Virus genome (UHGV): UHGV-0188933
Source: a virus
Reading direction: 5' to 3' (one strand)
Length of the DNA stretch: 18,246 nt
Positions 3,413 through 14,333 of this stretch are shown here, piece by piece. A program made the translations under genes and the position numbers. Each line of letters begins with the position of its first letter. The stretch's first letter is position 1. A model generated the notes under the pieces. The model made no database searches, was not told the origin of the DNA, and saw nothing but the letters and a program-made list of their open reading frames with translations.

Positions 3413-3603
3413 ACGCCACAATTCAAACGATACCAGAGCTTCTTATCCAGACACGAGGCAATCAGACCGAAGTGGCAAGGATGCTTTCCTGCGCAAGAGG
3501 AACAGTGCTTAAGTACAACCGAGACAGCAAAGGCGAGCGTCACGTAATAGTTAACGGCGTCCTGATGGTCAAACAGGGCAAGAGGGGAAGACGATGGGCA
3601 TAA
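3409..3603 (+). CDS. ninH: NinH-like protein
   Basis: 64 aa; TIPELLIQTRGNQTEVARMLSCARGTVLKYNRDSKGERHVIVNGVLMV resembles lambda NinH (TIPDMLVEAYGNQTEVARRLKCSRGTVRKY). Position between rusA and Q is as in lambdoid nin regions. Confidence 0.75.
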   Translation: MNATIQTIPELLIQTRGNQTEVARMLSCARGTVLKYNRDSKGERHVIVNGVLMVKQGKRGRRWA

Positions 3604-4082
3604 GAGAACTAAACCTCACCAAAGAGCAGCACGAGTGGCTGAATGGCTGGCTTGAACTGTGGGGGGCATGGGTTTATTCAGGTCGTCTTGAAAAGCGCAT
3701 GAGCAGCGTAATAGCGAAGTTCATGGAGAGCGTAGAGCCGGGAAGAGTTATGACAAGGCCAATGTGCAATGATGATGATGGAATGTTGATTTCTCAGGTC
3801 GTCGATTCCGTCATGTACATTGACAAGAAAGCCTTTGGCATCCTCCTCAGCTACTACGCCCATGGATCTTCCAAGCACGCCATTGCATCTTACTATCATC
3901 GCGTCGCAAGACCTCGCAAGATGTTATGCCGGGGCGGAGGGCGCATTCAAAAACCATCGCTCGCAACCTGTCGTCGGGAAGTTGACGAAATCCTCAATGC
4001 CTCGTTGTTTATGATTTACCCGGTTCTGGATAGTGCGTTTAAAAACCGGAAACGTGTAGAGAAAATTAAACATGTAGCATAG
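3594..4082 (+). CDS. late-gene antiterminator, Q-like
   Basis: 162-aa Cys-containing protein in the Q position (after ninH, before the lysis cassette). Call rests on synteny and size more than on recognised motifs. Confidence 0.55.
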   Translation: MGIRELNLTKEQHEWLNGWLELWGAWVYSGRLEKRMSSVIAKFMESVEPGRVMTRPMCNDDDGMLISQVVDSVMYIDKKAFGILLSYYAHGSSKHAIASYYHRVARPRKMLCRGGGRIQKPSLATCRREVDEILNASLFMIYPVLDSAFKNRKRVEKIKHVA

Positions 4083-4126
4083 AACGTGTTGACATCATTG
4101 AGCAAATGAGCAACACTATTCGCATA

Positions 4127-4168
4127 AGCTGCCGTTAGTGACTCTTAAGTTGCAACGGTGGCTTTTTT
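4127..4168 (+). terminator. hairpin plus T-run downstream of Q (possible short late-leader terminator)
   Basis: 10-bp stem (agctgccgtt / aacggtggct, two G-U pairs) with 17-nt loop, followed by TTTTTTATTT. A TTGACA hexamer lies at 4089-4094. Confidence 0.4.
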
Positions 4169-4172
4169 ATTT

Positions 4173-4247
4173 GGGTCAGTCGTATAAAGGTCATTACGGA
4201 AGGCTGTTAACCTTCTTATCGTGGTTCGAGTCCACGCTATCCCGCCA
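4173..4247 (+). tRNA. tRNA-Asn-like element (anticodon GUU), possibly degenerate
   Basis: Perfect T-arm cgtgg-TTCGAGT-ccacg, perfect anticodon arm gaagg-CTGTTAA-ccttc (U33, anticodon GTT, A37), U8, A14, GG in D-loop, 3' CCA at 4245-4247. Acceptor stem has two mismatches (gggtcag vs ctatccc) and D-stem one. Confidence 0.45.
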
Positions 4248-4283
4248 AACATGCTGGTTTAGCTCCAATGGTAGAGGTGGTAA

Positions 4284-4709
4284 ATGCCGAGCAAAGATTA
4301 CTATCTTAATCGAAGGGCTAGGCTTGCTAAGACCGTGGAAAAGTTGGGTGGTCGTTGCGCGAGTTGCGGATCCGAATATTCGCTTCAGTTTGACCACATA
4401 GACCCTTCCACCAAATCAGCAAATGTAAGCGAGATGCACTATCACTCAGATTAGGTGTTTTATGCTGAGGTTGAAAAGTGCCAACTACTATGTTCTGCAT
4501 GCCACATTCAGAAAACCAAATTTGACCTTAGCTACTTAGTAGCTGGTGAGCTGAATGGTATGAGCAAGCTAACAATGGACAGCGTCCAGTTCATCAGAGA
4601 AAACTACATTCCACGACATAAGGTTTATGGAGCCAGAGGGCTAGGGAGAATGTTTGGTGTAACACATCAAACAGTGCTTTCAGCCTTAAATGGCGAAAGC
4701 TGGAAATAA
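4284..4709 (+). pseudogene. HNH endonuclease interrupted by in-frame TAG at 4452-4454
   Basis: Frame from ATG 4284 reads ...CASCGSEYSLQFDHIDPSTKSANVSEMHYHSD*VFYAEVEKCQLLCSACHIQKT...; the C-x2-C, DH, N and C-x2-CH elements of one HNH motif are split by the stop. Good SD (gaggtgg) upstream. Confidence 0.7.
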
Positions 4710-5126
4710 GCTGCGCGTCAGAGGTTCGATTCCTTTGCCCGCTCCAGTAAAAGCTTTCCAGTCTGCGATGATGGGTTCCCCGGAGTGACTGGAAAGCGAC
4801 CTGGTTTTGAATGGGCGCTGCTTTTTGCAAAATTGCTGTGTGAAAATACTGACCTTTGGGTTCAGCGCTCATCCAAAAGCATCACGTGAATTCACCAACG
4901 CTCATGTACTCTCCAGGAAACAATAAGTGATTCTGAAAAGTTCCGGTTAGATATTGCCCCGGTCACCGGATGATTTTATCTTTTGGTTCGTGGTGAATCC
5001 CCCTATGCGGCGGGGCGTCCAGTCAAACTTTTTTGTCCAGGTTTGTTTGCGCGGAACTAGTCGGCTGGGGCTGTTCCACCGGGAGGCACCCGGCGCCACC
5101 TCCTTGACGGTATTGTTATTTTTCAT

Positions 5127-5153
5127 GCCTGTTCGTCCGAGCAGGCTTTTTTT
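5127..5153 (+). terminator. intrinsic terminator about 410 bp upstream of holin (tR'-like)
   Basis: 8-bp stem (gcctgttc / gagcaggc with one G-U), 4-nt loop, then TTTTTTT. Confidence 0.6.
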
Positions 5154-5563
5154 GCCCGCATTATCTTCATTGAAAACTGGCAACTCAGAGAATCATCCAA
5201 ATTAAAAAAGCAGCAACGAGAGCGATTACTAATACATTCTTCGCTTTTTCTCTTCTGCTGGCCTTCACAAAAGGATTCACTATCCGGCAGTGGCTACACA
5301 CAAGTGATTCTGGGTTAATTAACTTTCCGCAGTAGGGGCAGGGCTTGATAATCATTGGTACTAATTAAGTTGTGAGAACGTAGTCTCATTTAACCACATT
5401 TATCGAGTTGTTTTACTAATGGTCTAGTTATTTCAGACATATTCATCAATTTCAGGCTCACGGGAATCATCCGCTACGTGCTTTGTTGATAAATCCAGCC
5501 CGTGAAGCCTGACCCTTTTCAAACACACACACAGCACCATCCGGAAAATCGGAGGTGAGGCCT

Positions 5564-8089: not shown

Positions 8090-8245
8090 ATGGCAAAGCT
8101 CACCGACAAACAAGAGCTGTTTGCCCGTGAGTACCTGAAAGATTTAAACGCCACACAGGCAGCTATCAGGGCGGGTTGGGCAAAAGCTCAACAACATGCC
8201 GTATTACCGCGCGAAACAATACGCGCAGATGCTTGGCATCGATGA
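8090..8245 (+). pseudogene. terminase small subunit, N-terminal stub (51 codons)
   Basis: MAKLTDKQELFAREYLKDLNATQAAIRAGW... is the conserved N-terminal helix-turn-helix of Terminase_2-type small subunits; frame ends at 8243-8245 after diverging. SD ggag 8 nt upstream. Confidence 0.7.
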
Positions 8246-9833
8246 AAACACGCTGATGGCGATGCGGCGCGGCATGAATGGCTTTACCGCCGATTACCAG
8301 TCGATGCTGCAAAAGACAGGGTTCAACGCTGATAAAGCGGCTGTTCAGTCCAACAAATTCATGACGTCCATGCGCGGGCTTACGTCGCTGTTCGGCATCA
8401 TGCGGGACAAGATCGGCTCAAACCTCGCTGGTGGCCTGGCTGGTTCGCTGGACAGCCTGCGGCGGCGCATCCTCGACAATTTCCCGAAGATTGAAGAGAC
8501 GCTGACCAGAGTTATTAAAGGCGTGATCTGGCTTGCGAACGCATTCACGAGAATGGCGTGGCGGCTGATACAGGGCGCTGGCTCTGTCATCGACTGGTGG
8601 AAGCGTCTTGACGATGGCAGTAAAAATCTGCTGAAAATATTCGGTGCTCTACTGGTCGCATGGCGTCTGCTTAATTCTGCGTTCCTGAAATCCCCGATTG
8701 GAATTATCACCACACTGATTCTGGCGATCGGATTGCTGTACGACGATTACCAGACGTGGAAAGAGGGCGGTAAAAGCCTGATTGACTGGTCCAAATGGCA
8801 GCCAGAAATTGAGCAGGCAAAGAAGGTGTTCAAGTGGCTGCGCGATAAGTTTCTGGAGCTCAAGGACAACCTCGGCGGCTGGAAAAATACGCTCACCATC
8901 CTGTTTGGCTTTCTGGCTGGTGCGAAGCTGGTCTCCATGCTCACTGGCATCGGGCGACTTGTCGCCGGATTTATGGGGCTTGGTAAGGCAATTGGCGGCT
9001 CTATTGGTGGGCTGGGTAAGCTGGCGCAGGGGATCGCACAGCTGGCAATCAAGAATCCATGGTTGCTTATGTTCATTCCTGCCAACAATACGCCGACCAC
9101 CAGTGAAGAAATGGCGTCGATTGGCGGTATAGGCAGCAATATCGTACCTGAAAGGCAGCAGGCATATGAGGCGCTGAGAAAGGAAAATCCCGGCAAAGAC
9201 TTTTTCACTGATGAGCAAATCCAGCGAAAAATTCAGGAGATGGGACTGGAGCCGGAGCAGCGAGCGCAGTCGGTTAAGCGACCTCAGGCGACGGCCCAGG
9301 GCAAGGTATTGCTCGACTGGATGGGGCCAATGTTCAATAAACTGGAGTCGCTTTATCAGCTGCCAGCTGGCCTGTTGAAAAGCGTGGCGATCACCGAGTC
9401 GGGTGGTAACCAGTTCGCCATATCCGGCGCAGGCGCGAAAGGACTGTTTCAGTTTATGGATGGCACGGCGCGCGACATGGGCCTGCGTGGGAATGATGTA
9501 TTCGACCCGGAAAAGTCAGCTCAGGCAGCCGCTAAGTACCTCAGCCAGCTGTTGCGGCAGAACGGCGGAGACCTTAGCAAAGCACTGGCATCATATAACT
9601 GGGGGATCGGGAATGTTAAGCGTTATGGAATGGGGCTAATGCCGCAGGAAACGCGCAACTACATTCCGAAAGTGATGAGCAATATGCCCACCAGCGCCCC
9701 GGTGATTCAGCAGGAAACGAACATTAACATCCACGGCGTTTCCGATCCGCGCGAGGCTGCCCGTTTGACTGTTGACCGTCAAAAGGGCGTGAATTCACAG
9801 TTAACCCAGCAACTCCCCGCAGGACCGAGATAA
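8196..9833 (+). CDS. tail tape measure protein, C-terminal portion, with lytic transglycosylase (SLT) domain; N-terminal part absent
   Basis: Typical TMP low-complexity Gly/Ala/Leu segments (LAGGLAGSLDSL, GKAIGGSIGGLGKLAQGIAQ). C-terminal ITESGGNQFAISGAGAKGLFQFMDGTARDMGL...ASYNWG is an SLT signature. Frame opens only at 8148, just inside the terS stub. Confidence 0.75.
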   Translation: MPYYRAKQYAQMLGIDENTLMAMRRGMNGFTADYQSMLQKTGFNADKAAVQSNKFMTSMRGLTSLFGIMRDKIGSNLAGGLAGSLDSLRRRILDNFPKIEETLTRVIKGVIWLANAFTRMAWRLIQGAGSVIDWWKRLDDGSKNLLKIFGALLVAWRLLNSAFLKSPIGIITTLILAIGLLYDDYQTWKEGGKSLIDWSKWQPEIEQAKKVFKWLRDKFLELKDNLGGWKNTLTILFGFLAGAKLVSMLTGIGRLVAGFMGLGKAIGGSIGGLGKLAQGIAQLAIKNPWLLMFIPANNTPTTSEEMASIGGIGSNIVPERQQAYEALRKENPGKDFFTDEQIQRKIQEMGLEPEQRAQSVKRPQATAQGKVLLDWMGPMFNKLESLYQLPAGLLKSVAITESGGNQFAISGAGAKGLFQFMDGTARDMGLRGNDVFDPEKSAQAAAKYLSQLLRQNGGDLSKALASYNWGIGNVKRYGMGLMPQETRNYIPKVMSNMPTSAPVIQQETNINIHGVSDPREAARLTVDRQKGVNSQLTQQLPAGPR

Positions 9834-10435
9834 TGGATATTTTATCAGCGATTTTTCGCCAGCAATCCCGGCGAATTGGCCTGCTGATCCCCAGCGTGGT
9901 CGTTTCCGAAAAGCATTCTGATGCGCTCGAAATTACTGAGCACCCGGTGGAGAAGCCAACAACGAATAGCGCGTCGGGTTTCATCGCCGATCATGCGTAT
10001 AAGCGCCCCAGCGAAGTCACGATGGAATGCGGCTTCGCAGGTGGCGGTTCGTTGCTGGACTTCATTGATACATCGTCAATCGGCCTCAGCGCCGGACTTA
10101 GCCCGAAAGAGACCTATCAGCAACTACTGGATCTCCAGTCCTCTCGGGTGCCGTTCGATGTAGTGACCGGAAAGCGGGTTTACAGCAATATGCTGGTGCG
10201 AGCCATCGAGGTGACAACGGATAAAACCAGCGAGAACGTGCTGAACTGCACGCTTACCCTGCGTGAAGTGATCATGTCGCAGACGCAGAGCGTTAGCGTT
10301 GCAGATAAATCAGATATGCAGGATGGCGTCAGCACATCGGCGGTGCAGAATTCCGGGATGAAATCCACTACACCGCCAAACGAATCCTTGCTGAGCCAGC
10401 TGGGCGGAAGCGTTACATCAGCATTCGGGGGATGA
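9833..10435 (+). CDS. tail/baseplate assembly protein (family uncertain)
   Basis: 200-aa ORF translationally coupled to the TMP stop; position between TMP and hub. Confidence 0.4.
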   Translation: MDILSAIFRQQSRRIGLLIPSVVVSEKHSDALEITEHPVEKPTTNSASGFIADHAYKRPSEVTMECGFAGGGSLLDFIDTSSIGLSAGLSPKETYQQLLDLQSSRVPFDVVTGKRVYSNMLVRAIEVTTDKTSENVLNCTLTLREVIMSQTQSVSVADKSDMQDGVSTSAVQNSGMKSTTPPNESLLSQLGGSVTSAFGG

Positions 10436-10436
10436 T

Positions 10437-10742
10437 ATGCAGTTTAACGAAATACCGCTTTCTCCTGACAATCAGCAGTTCCGCGTTTTGCTGGGCAATA
10501 CCACGTATACACTCAGGATCATCTGACGTGATGCGGCTGGCTGGATTATGGACGTGATGGATAGCGGCGGTGCCGCGCTTCTCTCTGGCGTACCTCTACT
10601 GACCGGCGTAAACCTTTTACGACAATATCCACAGCTTGGCATTGATGGCGCGCTGGTGGTGGCGACCGATAAGGGCGCACCAGACGAGCCCACCAAAACC
10701 AACCTCGGCACATACAGCCACCTCATTTTCGTACAGGAGTAG
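10437..10742 (+). pseudogene. small tail protein interrupted by in-frame TGA at 10524-10526
   Basis: Single frame reads MQFNEIPLSPDNQQFRVLLGNTTYTLRII*RDAAGWIMDVMDSGGAALLSGVPLLTGVNLL...VQE, verified codon by codon; the TGA would be Trp with one G-to-A change. Confidence 0.5.
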
Positions 10743-10744
10743 AA

Positions 10745-11812
10745 ATGTCTCTTAACTGGATGCGCCATTTTGAGCTGCAACTGTTGGACCAGAACGGGCA
10801 GGGCGTTTCCCTGTCTGACTTTAAGGTCACGTTCCAGATCGAGTGGGCAGACACACGCTGGCCACGCGTGGCGAACGTGAAAATTTACAACCTTTCGACC
10901 GATACCACGAACAAGATACTGGGGCAGGAGTTTGCAAAAATTCGCATCATTGCCGGGTATGACGGTATTGCGCCGGATGTTGATGCGAGCCAGGTTGGTG
11001 TCGCCCGGGAGATTTCACCAGACCAGGTAGGGCAGGTGAACGGTCAGAACTACGGCCTGATATTTGACGGTGATATTCGCTTCACCGTCACCGGGAAGGA
11101 CAACATCACCGATTCCTGGGTGCTGATTCAGGCCATCAGTAACCACGAAGCGTTCCTCTACGCGACTACCATCACCACGCTTGCCGCTGGTTATACCGTT
11201 GCGGACCTGCACCGGGCGACTATGCAGGATTTCAACGCGTTCGGCGTGACGCAGGGCATTACCGGTGACTTTCCTGATACCGTGTTTCCTCGTGGCCGTG
11301 CGATTTATTCATCCACCCGTAACGTGATGGATAATATTGCTGCGCAGTGCAAAGCGACATGGCAGCTGGTGGATGGTCAGGTCCAGATGGTGCCGGAGGA
11401 TAAATATATTCACGAAGCCATTGTGTTGAATGCCGATACTGGCCTGATCGGTATGCCGCAACAAACGATGGGCGGCGGAGTAAACGTGCGGTGCCTGATA
11501 AACCCAAACATCCGTATTAATGGTCTTATCCAGCTCGATCAGGCTTCGGTGTACCGCGCCGCGCTCGGTAATAGCGAAATAGCACAGTCGCCCGGTCGCA
11601 TCACCGAAACAGAAGAGAACGGCAACCGCGTACTGACCGGCACAACGTCACAGGCTGCCAGCATTGCGACAGATGGCGTTTATATCGTCAAAGCTATCGA
11701 TTATACTGGTGACACCAGAGGTCAGGCGTGGTACATGGATTTGATGTGTTTTGCGCGTGGGGCTCGTGACCTGATTAGCCAGTCGACTATAGCTCGCTCA
11801 GGAGGAAATTAA
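10745..11812 (+). CDS. baseplate hub-like tail protein (Mu gp44 / P2 gpD position)
   Basis: 355-aa ORF immediately upstream of the spike/gp46/gpJ/gp48 module; assignment by synteny and size. Confidence 0.4.
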   Translation: MSLNWMRHFELQLLDQNGQGVSLSDFKVTFQIEWADTRWPRVANVKIYNLSTDTTNKILGQEFAKIRIIAGYDGIAPDVDASQVGVAREISPDQVGQVNGQNYGLIFDGDIRFTVTGKDNITDSWVLIQAISNHEAFLYATTITTLAAGYTVADLHRATMQDFNAFGVTQGITGDFPDTVFPRGRAIYSSTRNVMDNIAAQCKATWQLVDGQVQMVPEDKYIHEAIVLNADTGLIGMPQQTMGGGVNVRCLINPNIRINGLIQLDQASVYRAALGNSEIAQSPGRITETEENGNRVLTGTTSQAASIATDGVYIVKAIDYTGDTRGQAWYMDLMCFARGARDLISQSTIARSGGN

Positions 11813-12703
11813 GTGGGTACAAATAAGAACGGAATTCGATATAGCGCACTTTTTCTTTCCGGGTTGCTCTTATCCGGGGGCGCGAGTGCAGGCTTTAATT
11901 CCGCGCAGAACGCTGAGTACAAAAGACGTCCAGGATGGCAGCCGATAGTAATTTTATCGACAGATGATTGTCAGACATGGAAATCTAAAGGGAAGTCACT
12001 AATTGACTGGAGTGGCGAGATCTGTGGTCCTGACGGGTTGATTAAGGCAATCAATAAAAAGCCGGAGAATATACCAGCTTTTTATGCTGCATATCATGAG
12101 TACGGCACAGGTGGAGTTAGGGCTATCGATGTAAGAGATAATTCTCAGCTAAATTATCTCAATTTTGTAAATGATTTAGCTAAGAAACTTTCTTCTTCGG
12201 CTGTTGTATTAAAGATTTATGATGATTATATCATTGATAGAAAACCCATGGGGCTTGCAGAGGTTTCACGAGAAAATTTTGTAAAACAGCTAAATGAGTT
12301 ATCGCTGAAGCAACCTGCCATCTATCAAAAAATGAACGACGTAGCCAAGGCTGATTACGAGAAAAGTAGTAATGTTCACAGTAACGAAAAGCTTGGCGTG
12401 AATTACAAAACAGTCTGTGGTCCTTATACGATTGATCTGTCTTCTGCTGATGGTTGGGCCAGAATTAATGGCGCAAAACCAGAGACGCAAAAAATTAGCC
12501 CAATCGGCTCTGGTGGTAGCACCAAAGGGGAACCGGATAACATCAAGATGGAGTGGATGGCTGCCACTAATCAACCCGGCCGCTGGGTTGGGCTTGAGTA
12601 CATCAAGCGCAACGGAAAAGCTATTCTCAACGCACAGTGGTTGCAGGCCAGCATAGACGCGCCGCGCCAGTATGCAACATACGACTGCCGAAAAGTAAAA
12701 TAG
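11813..12703 (+). CDS. cargo (moron) protein, 296 aa: signal-peptide-like N-terminus and a TMP-like motif; function unknown
   Basis: GTG start 7 nt after GGAGG. N-terminus MGTNKNGIRYSALFLSGLLLSGGASAG looks like a signal peptide. Residues DDCQTWKSKGKSLIDWS parallel DDYQTWKEGGKSLIDWS in the TMP. Remainder is visibly AT-rich relative to flanking tail genes. Confidence 0.55.
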   Translation: MGTNKNGIRYSALFLSGLLLSGGASAGFNSAQNAEYKRRPGWQPIVILSTDDCQTWKSKGKSLIDWSGEICGPDGLIKAINKKPENIPAFYAAYHEYGTGGVRAIDVRDNSQLNYLNFVNDLAKKLSSSAVVLKIYDDYIIDRKPMGLAEVSRENFVKQLNELSLKQPAIYQKMNDVAKADYEKSSNVHSNEKLGVNYKTVCGPYTIDLSSADGWARINGAKPETQKISPIGSGGSTKGEPDNIKMEWMAATNQPGRWVGLEYIKRNGKAILNAQWLQASIDAPRQYATYDCRKVK

Positions 12704-12721
12704 CCCGCCAGATAGGCGGGC
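12703..12721 (-). terminator. GC-rich hairpin between the convergent cargo genes (terminator for the minus-strand gene)
   Basis: gcccgcc-agata-ggcgggc, 7-bp stem; on the minus strand it is followed by a T-rich tract (ctattttacttttc). Confidence 0.55.
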
Positions 12722-12726
12722 ATGCG

Positions 12727-13017
12727 TCAAAAATATTGAGCTTTAATTATAATAAACACAATAATTACGAACAGGATGTTTCTAATTATTTTTTGCTTAT
12801 GAGTAAGTTGTTTTTTTTCTGTCGATTTCCCGGGAGAGTAAAGGTTAGTGGTATGCGACAGCCCCGTGCCGGGAAGGCCATTTGTCATCTTTACGCCTTT
12901 TTTCCCGATGTTAATGGTGGAACCTTTACCACCAATTGAAGTGCTTACTCCGCTTTTACTAATGTTGATCGCGAGTCCGGGCGCAATCCGGATTCTTTTA
13001 CGAAATCTAAATCCCAT
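12727..13017 (-). CDS. DUF4236-like small protein with C-terminal transmembrane helix
   Basis: MGFRFRKRIRIAPGLAINISKSGVSTSIGGKGSTINIGKKG...PGTGLS resembles what I recall of the DUF4236 N-terminal signature; C-terminus IIRNILFVIIVFIIIKAQYF is hydrophobic. AT-rich, convergent with the cargo gene. Confidence 0.55.
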   Translation of the reverse strand: MGFRFRKRIRIAPGLAINISKSGVSTSIGGKGSTINIGKKGVKMTNGLPGTGLSHTTNLYSPGKSTEKKQLTHKQKIIRNILFVIIVFIIIKAQYF

Positions 13018-13204
13018 TTGTTACTCCTGTAGTCAATAATGCGATGGTGCAGGTCCACTCTATGGCGGCTTCATGGCTGAAATTGATTTTCAATGCTTAC
13101 TTGTTGCAAACATATCCTAATACACATTGTGAATGTGTGCCATTGCAGCGGAAAAGCCTTACTTCACACTGATGTAGCTTAGTTACTAAGAGATAATTGA
13201 TACC

Positions 13205-13228
13205 AAACCAGCTTCGGCTGGTTTTTTT
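13205..13228 (+). terminator. strong intrinsic terminator 12 bp upstream of the spike gene start
   Basis: aaaccagc-ttcg-gctggttt, perfect 8-bp stem with tetraloop, then TTTT (7 T in a row counting the stem end). Confidence 0.7.
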
Positions 13229-13239
13229 ATGGGGGTTTT

Positions 13240-13980
13240 ATGCCAATTCCAACTCAATCACAGATCGGCGGTGAGCAGCAGACCGCGCAGGCCATTGCCG
13301 ATTCGGTGTCTACCCAGATGCGCGTAGCGATGCCCGGCATCATTCAGTCGTTCGATCCTGACACTGTTACCTGCACGGTAGAGGTAGCGCTTCGCGGTAT
13401 CGTTGGCGATGGCTCCACCGAATTAAAACCGCTGGTGGATGTGCCGGTTATCTTCCCGCGTGGCGGCGGTTGTACGCTGACTTTTCCGGTTAAAGAAGGC
13501 GACGAGTGCCTGCTGCTCTTTGCCGACCGTTGCATCGATTTCTGGTGGCAGAGCGGCGGCGTGCAGGAGACCGTCGACCCGCGCCAGCATGACTTATCTG
13601 ATGCGTTCGCCATCGTTGGCCCACAGTCGCAAGCACGGAAAATCAGCGGTATCAGTACCAGCGCCGCGCAGCTGCGAACCGATGATGGTGCGGCGTTTGT
13701 AGAAGTCGCCGCAGGACATAACATCACCATTAAAACACCGGGCCAGCTTACAGCTACGGCTGAAGGTGGAACGACAATCACATCCCCGACTATCACGCTG
13801 AACGGCAACGTAACGATTAATGGCAACTTGTCTCAGGGAATGGGCGAAAGCGGCGGTACTGCGACGATGCTTGGGCCGGTGACGGTAACGAATGACGTAA
13901 CAGCTTCTGGTATCAGTGTCGCCACGCATAAACATGGCGGAGTACAGACTGGCGGGGGAACTACCGGAGGGCCGCAATAA
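13240..13980 (+). CDS. baseplate spike / assembly protein V (Mu gp45, P2 gpV-like)
   Basis: N-terminal OB-fold-like region (GIIQSFDPDTVTCTVEV...PLVDVPVIFPRGGG...GDECLLLFADR) and Gly/Thr-rich beta-helical C-terminus (TITSPTITLNGNVTINGNL...). Confidence 0.8.
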   Translation: MPIPTQSQIGGEQQTAQAIADSVSTQMRVAMPGIIQSFDPDTVTCTVEVALRGIVGDGSTELKPLVDVPVIFPRGGGCTLTFPVKEGDECLLLFADRCIDFWWQSGGVQETVDPRQHDLSDAFAIVGPQSQARKISGISTSAAQLRTDDGAAFVEVAAGHNITIKTPGQLTATAEGGTTITSPTITLNGNVTINGNLSQGMGESGGTATMLGPVTVTNDVTASGISVATHKHGGVQTGGGTTGGPQ

Positions 13981-14333
13981 TGCGATACCGTCGCGAAGAT
14001 ACTGAAGGCGATTACACTTTCGGCCAGGGTGACGATACTTTCCTTATCGACAGTCCGGAATGTGTCGCCCAGGCCGTAAAAACCCGTTTCGAGCTGTGGC
14101 GCGGTCAGTGGTTTCTCGATCTGACGGAAGGCACGCCGTATGTTCAGTCAGTGCTTGGGAAGCAGCGATCAGATGTCTACATCCTGGCTATACGCGAACG
14201 CATACAGGATACACCGGGCGTTCTGTCGATTCTTTCCTTCGATACCAATTATGACGGCACCAGCCGTCGCGTCACCTTCACTTCCTCCATTGACACAATC
14301 TACGGCCAGACGACTGTAACAAGCGAGGCATAA
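13980..14333 (+). CDS. baseplate protein, Mu gp46 / gpW-like
   Basis: 117 aa, ATGA-coupled between spike and gpJ-like gene. Confidence 0.65.
   Translation: MRYRREDTEGDYTFGQGDDTFLIDSPECVAQAVKTRFELWRGQWFLDLTEGTPYVQSVLGKQRSDVYILAIRERIQDTPGVLSILSFDTNYDGTSRRVTFTSSIDTIYGQTTVTSEA

Follow-up and report, generated by a model that had tools for sequence, protein, structure and literature searches.

An accessory-gene exchange site between the baseplate hub and spike genes of temperate Enterobacterales myoviruses, seen from a defective prophage

The virus genome UHGV-0188933 (18,246 nucleotides, referred to below as the window) is identical in sequence to IMG/VR contig 3300030379_000026 and encodes the distal half of a contractile tail. 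In this cluster the interval from baseplate hub to spike, 11813-13230, is here called the slot; it contains two convergent open reading frames (ORFs) separated by a hairpin, with a terminator immediately 5' of the spike gene (Table 1). The forward ORF, gene 1, encodes a 296 residue protein with a signal-peptide-like N-terminus, and the reverse ORF a 96 residue protein with a DUF4236 domain and a C-terminal helix. This much had been read from the bare sequence in a first-pass annotation and is confirmed here, both the inter-ORF hairpin (12703-12721) and the closing terminator (13205-13231) being real; no Rfam family or tRNA was matched in the interval. Comparison with related loci identifies the slot as a long-lived site at which accessory genes are swapped between hub and spike in one clade of temperate Enterobacterales myoviruses, a clade that includes SEN34 (Brunovirus), Mulock, Omnitron and yong1.

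The interval had also been described as an island more AT-rich than its flanks. Taken as a whole it is, with a GC content of 0.429 against 0.509 (standard deviation 0.024) in the rest of the window, about 3.3 standard deviations below the mean; all 280 equal-sized windows elsewhere have a GC content of at least 0.451, so the slot is the lowest. The AT-richness is not uniform, however, but falls into two blocks parted by a conserved segment of backbone composition. The signal peptide and N-terminal domain of gene 1 have a GC content of 0.407 (0.38 at third codon positions, GC3), the DUF4236 gene 0.392 and the spacer upstream of it 0.405, whereas the last third of gene 1 (12410-12703) is backbone-like at 0.51 (GC3 0.52); the hub and spike genes themselves range between 0.54 and 0.57.

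Table 1. Features of the slot and of the tail genes on either side of it (window coordinates; a slash marks the predicted cleavage site of the signal peptide)
Feature	Position	Strand	Details
Tape-measure C-terminus with SLT domain	8196-9833
Dit-like protein	9833-10435
Pam3_gp18-type baseplate plug	10437-10742
Baseplate hub, left border of slot	10745-11812	+	phrog_196 baseplate hub, E 8.8e-85
AGGAGG eight bases upstream of gene 1	11800-11805	+
Hub stop codon TAA	11810-11812	+
Gene 1 (ORF A), 296 residues	11813-12703	+	GTG start at 11813
Gene 1 signal peptide, residues 1-26	11813-11890	+	ASA/G
Gene 1 all-helical AT-rich N-terminal domain, residues ~35-187	11915-12373	+	helices predicted by AlphaFold2 (AF2); conserved C53 and C71
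Gene 1 C-terminal domain, predicted small 8-strand beta-barrel	12407-12703	+	conserved C202 and C292 (CGPY...YDC)
Intrinsic terminator of DUF4236 gene	12703-12721	-	GCCCGCC-TATCT-GGCGGGC then TATTTT
DUF4236 gene (ORF B), 96 residues	12727-13017	-	Pfam DUF4236 (PF14020)
AT-rich spacer upstream of DUF4236 gene	13018-13204		leader TTGACTACAGGAG common to Klebsiella homologue
Slot-closing intrinsic terminator	13205-13231	+	AAACCAGC-TTCG-GCTGGTTT then T7, directly 5' of spike ribosome-binding site and ATG
Spike (gpV-like), right border of slot	13240-13980	+	PF18352, E 1.7e-41; Apex motif; TIGR01644 phage_P2_V
Small ORF where relatives encode sheath initiator	13980-14333

The comparison covered 80 loci that have both hub and spike: the window, eight annotated phage or E. 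coli loci, and 71 loci from IMG/VR. The distance from hub to spike ranges between 427 and 2474 bp, the slot is never of zero length or empty, and about 35 configurations occur. Hub and spike, whose adjacency in related prophages had been proposed as a check on insertion, are never adjacent in this set, but they overlap or abut in distant phages whose hub belongs to the same family (Providencia PSTCR3, Salmonella SE13, Ralstonia PY059YO380), which argues that the slot is derived and that the interval is an accessory-gene site; it thus arose once in the clade and has persisted since. In second position the loci carry an antisense DUF4236 gene, Phd/Doc, a 128 residue secreted protein, a 116 residue antisense protein, a protein with transmembrane segment and zinc ribbon, two-gene sets of unknown function, Arc/Bro/ANT-like antirepressors, or nothing. 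Cargo of the other slot variants is mostly of unknown function: matches to EACC1 and Mu-F-like families are weak and below cut-off, and PADLOC returned none.

Both edges of the exchanged DNA can be located. On the left, the last ~10 codons of the hub are variable among relatives and tblastn matches stop at residue 345-355 (the hub reaches 26 bits against PF22759 E217_GP41, below the cut-off of 27); gene 1 then abuts the hub gene with no gap, a junction that is just as tight in relatives. On the right, a GC hairpin followed by a run of 6-8 T stands before the conserved spike ribosome-binding site in 80/80 loci, built on at least 8 unrelated stem sequences; its structure is kept while its sequence is exchanged along with the cargo. 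This T-run, which in the window ends 7 bases before the spike start codon, forms the right border of the variable DNA.

The first gene of the slot almost always carries the same small domain. The barrel that forms the C-terminal part of gene 1 was found directly behind the hub in 75/80 loci, and the helical domain that precedes it here in 12/80. Usually the first gene encodes 114-141 residues, a signal peptide ending AxA/D and then the barrel (CGP[YF]...YDC); a profile of this short form recovers at least 410 clusters, all of them labelled 'hypothetical' and without a Pfam domain. Barrel clusters come from E. coli, Citrobacter, Salmonella, Enterobacter, Serratia, Yersinia, Pectobacterium and Kosakonia, and the barrel is present in phages of Klebsiella as well. 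In phages of other genera it keeps the same post-hub position at 34-57% identity, the members at 53-57% (Pectobacterium, Yersinia, Serratia) lying between an E217_GP41-type hub and a spike, each with different following cargo; gene 1 is likewise found at this position in phages Mulock, SEN34, ST340-VIM1phi10.1 and Omnitron. Among 52 distinct alleles, synonymous divergence (dS) is ~1 in both halves, and the ratio of nonsynonymous to synonymous divergence (dN/dS) is 0.15 in the N-terminal half and 0.04 in the C-terminal half, values that indicate an ancient gene under purifying selection rather than a recent sweep. Positive selection on the variable half of the barrel was considered and left no sign, with dN/dS at 0.15 and many saturated pairs.

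The product of gene 1 is predicted to be exported. Judged by inspection (charged n-region, h-region, AxA motif), its N-terminus has K5 and R9 in the n-region, ALFLSGLLLSG as h-region and then ASA/G, in agreement with what Sec and signal peptidase I require, and the signal peptides of the short forms end AFA/D, AMA/D or ALA/D. In an alignment of 17 long forms, a Cys stands at or beside the lipobox position in 14 of the 16 homologues of the window allele, the exceptions being P0007 and the N-terminally truncated P0010, and we take the long forms of relatives to be lipoproteins. The window allele does not conform to the lipobox L-[AS]-[GA]-C: it reads LLLSGG where close alleles read LLLSGC or LLVSGC, Gly having replaced the lipobox Cys (codon 23, 11879-11881) in the window, in L009-L011 and in P0001 (a cluster of 81 sequences), while L012 and L014 retain the Cys. 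Because the ASA/G site remains, this allele is probably a soluble periplasmic protein.

Conservation of the same genes at this position as tail components had been named in advance as evidence against an acquired island. One half of gene 1 is in fact conserved there, but that half is exported, and this bears on what the protein may be for. Fixed synteny behind the hub, the close junction with it, purifying selection and occurrence in nearly the whole clade would all suit a conserved tail assembly or structural protein, whose hydrophobic N-terminus would then be something other than an export signal. We consider such a role improbable. All gene 1 variants combine the conserved Cys pair with a signal peptide that carries either an AxA site or a lipobox, as would suit the periplasm; the five loci without the barrel substitute unrelated exported proteins at the same position (lipoproteins with a type B C-terminal domain, and the signal-peptide protein of yong1); and the baseplates of distant relatives have no gene at this position. 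In Pseudomonas phage E217, moreover, where cryo-electron microscopy assigns ORFs 36-46 to the baseplate with gp41 as hub and gp43 as tail tip, gp42 goes unmentioned (PMC10329688), so that, on a comparison of position alone, the ORF between hub and tip is not among the described virion proteins. By analogy, E217 may also carry a non-virion ORF between hub and tip. The product of the slot's first gene is thus in every case envelope-directed; its head is exchangeable and its stalk domain optional.

The two domains of gene 1 differ in their distribution. Only residues 198-296 match phrog_3443 (unknown function; E 3.4e-34, profile positions 21-114 of 115). The helical N-terminal domain is uncommon: a search of 1.84 billion proteins yielded 15 representatives. 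The full-length ones inspected are lipoproteins that carry a third kind of C-terminal domain ('type C'), similar at its end to the yong1 protein, and a fusion of the N-terminal domain to type B is found in the E. coli AR_0118 protein (L008). By its occurrence and composition the N-terminal domain is the acquired part of gene 1. In a giant protein (P0268, 3135 residues), the part of this domain covered by query residues 37-103 matches eight stretches and so occurs as a repeat. In E. coli SY3626 (L001, 3217-3504) RefSeq annotates the barrel part only, as a pseudogene 'missing N-terminus'; since the ORF of the long form is open over its full length in that genome, reference genomes under-annotate this form.

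The fold of the barrel offers some comparisons. Its two cysteines are invariant in the family, and a profile search against PDB sequences gave weak matches to avidins through the motif I-x-RNGK-x-x-L-x-x-x-WL, hhalign returning 53% probability for barrel against avidin over 28 columns. We therefore read the fold, and not the function, as avidin-like. Avidin contacts biotin through Asn12, Ser16 and Tyr33, Trp70, Trp97 and Asn118 (avidin numbering); membership of the avidin family was rejected, as Pfam Avidin gave no match, the equivalent of Trp97 varies (W/L/M/Q) and the N-terminal biotin-contact residues are absent. Assignment to the MliC/PliC lysozyme inhibitors was likewise rejected, neither a match to the family hidden Markov model (HMM) nor a strong structural match having been obtained. 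Avidin and streptavidin, the PliC/MliC inhibitors and the type VI secretion system immunity protein BtaiB are among the small 8-strand periplasmic barrels with which gene 1 can be compared.

The second gene of the slot is ORF B, whose residues 3-55 match PF14020 with an E-value of 1.8e-20 (73.6 bits, cut-off 27; profile positions 1-54 of 55). The AF2 model (predicted local distance difference test 80.5) folds residues 6-60 into a beta meander of six strands and residues 73-95 into a helix; a Lys-rich linker joins the beta domain to this C-terminal helix, which is hydrophobic. On this model the protein is probably tail-anchored in the inner membrane, with its N-terminus in the cytoplasm. The same order of domain, linker and C-terminal helix is common to PF14020 proteins of ~100 residues across Proteobacteria, whereas other family members have SH3 domains after the helix, or long C-terminal regions. 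A tblastn search detects the gene in 24/80 loci; 19 copies were recovered as ORFs, all with the same protein sequence, which indicates recent spread. Homologues of 50-61% identity lie antisense in the same slot of Klebsiella and Hafnia prophages and of Klebsiella phages RCIP0034 and GZ7; the association of DUF4236 with the slot is thus older than this spread.

Whether the two genes belong together is a separate question, to which the assortment of slot contents gives a clear answer. The first-pass annotation had read the secreted and the membrane protein as a pair, and one recently acquired two-gene island encoding a single undescribed cooperative system would explain why adjacent, convergent genes are both envelope-directed in a region that is AT-rich overall; the exact pair recurs in 9/80 loci. 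Yet DUF4236 accompanies short forms of gene 1 (114-136 residues) in at least 9 loci, besides the 296 residue long form in the loci with the exact pair, and the long form occurs with two other types of cargo, the 116 residue antisense gene or a two-gene set. DUF4236 and the forms of gene 1 therefore assort independently and are not a linked pair; the barrel, with its backbone composition and its conservation throughout the clade, parts the two AT-rich blocks, and we find a single cooperative system highly improbable. The accompanying proposal of an acquired moron is sustained in part. The DUF4236 gene, absent from most relatives, low in GC content and equipped with its own terminator, appears to be a true swappable moron. 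For gene 1 the proposal extends to the N-terminal domain, which is missing from or replaced in most loci and deviates in composition as the DUF4236 gene does (0.39-0.41, against 0.54-0.57 in the flanks), but not to the barrel, found in nearly all loci with an undeviating GC content of 0.51 and dN/dS between 0.04 and 0.15.

The hairpin at 12703-12721 folds with -19 to -21 kcal/mol (z-scores: plus strand -4.0, minus strand -6.1), and as a T-run follows it on the minus strand only, it terminates the DUF4236 gene; it is common to every aligned relative with DUF4236. The promoter of this gene must lie in the spacer 13018-13204, where a weak -10-like CATTAT adjoins the leader shared with the Klebsiella homologue. 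Two perfect palindromes in the spacer, ACACATT-GTG-AATGTGT (13122-13138) and CTTAGT-T-ACTAAG (13178-13190), could be operator sites.

The element in which the slot is found here is a deletion-derived defective prophage, as its lack of terminase, head, sheath and tube genes, none of which was found in the element, implies. A fragment of the terminase small-subunit N-terminus (Terminase_2 positions 1-31 of 141; 8090-8245) is fused into the middle of the tape-measure gene with a junction near 8175, and similarity to an intact relative starts at tape-measure codon ~141. An in-frame TGA in the plug gene (10524-10526), where the relative L011 has TGG (Trp), is a second mark of decay. Both slot genes, hub and spike are still open despite the plug stop and the broken tape measure. 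Further 3' the tail genes continue with baseplate J, DUF2612, and a collar-domain fibre with its chaperone (Caudo_TAP). Upstream, a Q antiterminator gene (3594-4082), a tRNA-Asn (4173-4247) and a match to the small RNA family STnc100 (4965-5157, 71.7 bits) form a stretch (3594-5157) ahead of holin, lysozyme and Rz, a lambdoid late-control layout fused to a Mu/E217-type tail. A prophage of the same family in Yersinia enterocolitica (GCA_054455655.1; L091, 409-3619) has a Q antiterminator less than 2 kb before the Dit-like gene, and head, sheath and tube genes are not present between the two; this remnant, like that of the window, suggests that deletions of such a kind are recurrent.

We hold the anatomy, conservation, exchange pattern and export signals described above with high confidence. 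As an explanation of the whole, to which we give about an even chance, we propose a slot of three layers whose proteins would act independently in superinfection exclusion. The first layer is the exported protein of the clade, translated directly behind the hub and in this prophage consisting of a disulfide-closed barrel after a rare, AT-rich helical domain. The second is an exchangeable cassette, here the antisense, self-terminated gene for a tail-anchored DUF4236 protein of the inner membrane, and the third the intrinsic terminator that closes the slot before the spike. In a lysogen, cargo transcripts would stop at this terminator, which in lytic growth would be overridden by Q-modified polymerase reading through. 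The exported protein would work in the periplasm, against an incoming phage's tail tip, and the DUF4236 protein at the inner membrane, against the entry of DNA. That each protein is in its own right an exclusion factor of the envelope we put forward tentatively, as the likeliest of the readings and by analogy with systems considered below; the override by Q, expression in the prophage state and the exclusion function itself we hold with similarly limited confidence.

The location of gene 1 in a late operon directly behind the hub, its lack of a promoter of its own and its export would also agree with a function in the lytic cycle, either masking of receptors or inactivation of envelope components at a late stage of infection, which would keep progeny from being trapped by debris, or an aid to lysis. 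A second proposed role of T5 Llp is of this kind, preventing loss of progeny on debris. For gene 1, however, we think a lytic function unlikely: the phage already has holin, lysozyme and Rz; the collar-domain fibre and Caudo_TAP chaperone may point to a receptor of lipopolysaccharide type, which could not be masked from the periplasm; and gene 1 is an intact ORF in a defective prophage with a broken plug gene and a broken tape measure. A role in lysogenic conversion or host fitness, with the barrel as a periplasmic binder of a small ligand and DUF4236 as a membrane toxin, abortive-infection effector or holin-like protein, would draw on the avidin-like fold and the predicted membrane anchor, and seems to us quite unlikely. 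Against a ligand binder stand the unconserved Trp97 equivalent, the missing biotin contacts, the lack of a Pfam Avidin match and the shortness of the hhalign alignment; against a toxin, no antitoxin-like partner of DUF4236 was seen in the slot loci or in the Klebsiella, Hafnia and P. syringae contexts, and PADLOC had no match for DUF4236 (and one chance-level match for gene 1, E 0.024).

For DUF4236 the exclusion hypothesis comes from position, since genes of the family sit where Ltp- and gp15-type genes do, in the lysogeny module or beside the tape measure. Small proteins in which DUF4236 precedes a helix are encoded in a lambda-like tail of Pseudomonas syringae (gpK and gpJ being the neighbours), in Leclercia (tape measure and gpM), in a metagenomic siphovirus and C. 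difficile phiCD38-2 (chaperone and tape measure in both), in an Acinetobacter phage ahead of a long unannotated ORF that may be the tape measure, and in Pasteurella Pmp3 after the baseplate hub. In three temperate Firmicute phages, Roseburia Shimadzu (L115), Faecalibacterium FP_Epona (L116) and Ruminococcus RG-TP1 (L117), the DUF4236 gene is found between repressor or regulator and integrase, in the same orientation. The family may therefore favour neighbours of tape measure, tail tip and hub in phages of Proteobacteria and Clostridioides, and the repressor-integrase interval in Firmicute phages, as an exclusion gene might. This is guilt by position in a small sample, not proof.

These proposals must be tempered by several observations that weigh against exclusion. 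The positional argument draws on ~15 sampled contexts and is not a statistical survey, and two contexts do not fit, one in a Microcystis phage (next to terminase) and one chromosomal (next to IS21). Variation in gene 1 showed no correlation with that in the tape-measure C-terminus/SLT, Dit, hub, spike, gpW or gpJ (Spearman -0.16 to 0.20 over 29 loci), and so lends no support to a specific tail target; the comparison was of the flanks, outside which lies the receptor-binding part of the tail fibre. The promoter scan found nothing suitable for gene 1, nor any match to the sigma-70 consensus ahead of the DUF4236 gene on its strand, and as gene 1 is part of a late operon its expression in a lysogen is unproven. 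Structure searches with the barrel returned only generic 8-strand barrels. HMM searches, which the first-pass annotation had suggested for both proteins, matched no defence-system or functional family, and Pfam, NCBIfam, PADLOC and PHROG gave no function for either. What speaks for the exclusion roles is sequence, export signals and position.

Known systems provide partial precedents. The concept of morons and of the P2 hotspot, with accessory genes in tail operons, has been described (bioRxiv 10.1101/2024.10.15.618418). The slot resembles the morons of lambda and HK97, among them HK97 gp15, and P2 Z/fun in having an accessory gene of deviant composition, with its own terminator, in a late morphogenesis operon, and resembles moron hotspots in its fixed site and changing cargo, which relatives lack or have exchanged. 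The HK97 gp15 moron, encoded beside the tape-measure gene, is an exclusion protein of the inner membrane. The slot differs from a classical autonomous moron in that the barrel protein is close to fixation in the clade and tied to the hub gene, no promoter having been found, and from known hotspots in its site, where hub and spike meet in an E217/Mu-type baseplate, and in that neither of its cargo families is characterised. Like Ltp, T5 Llp, Cor, T4 Spackle and Glo, gene 1 encodes a small exported lipoprotein or soluble periplasmic protein of phage origin, both forms occurring in its family, and some of these exclusion proteins are encoded next to tail or receptor-binding genes; it shares no sequence or convincing fold relation with them, and the comparison is one of location, export signals and position. 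Ltp of TP-J34, whose gene lies in the lysogeny module, is expressed by the prophage, blocks DNA injection and has been proposed to bind the tape measure, while Glo of K139 is the soluble periplasmic exception among exclusion proteins (PMC3952083). In the literature searched, DUF4236 has a single mention, in passing, and the slot is undescribed.

Tail-operon hotspots are thus an already known kind of locus, and the slot does not change the general view of phage genomes; what is new is the site and its cargo. It adds a hotspot to a common Enterobacterales prophage family, with borders at hub codon ~345 and at a universal terminator and with ~35 cargo sets, and it yields two abundant families of unknown function, the barrel and DUF4236. 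Sites of this type (P2 Z/fun, the HK97 gp15 moron) have proved fruitful for finding exclusion and defence genes. A wider reading, somewhat unlikely as it stands, is that DUF4236 would be a large family of prophage exclusion proteins blocking DNA entry, and that the exported proteins behind the hub, with their exchangeable heads (barrel, type B, type C) and optional lipoprotein stalk, may be modular periplasmic exclusion factors directed against the tail tips of incoming kin phages. The recurrent placement of DUF4236 by tail-tip and tape-measure genes or lysogeny genes makes this a concrete and cheap hypothesis for plating assays.

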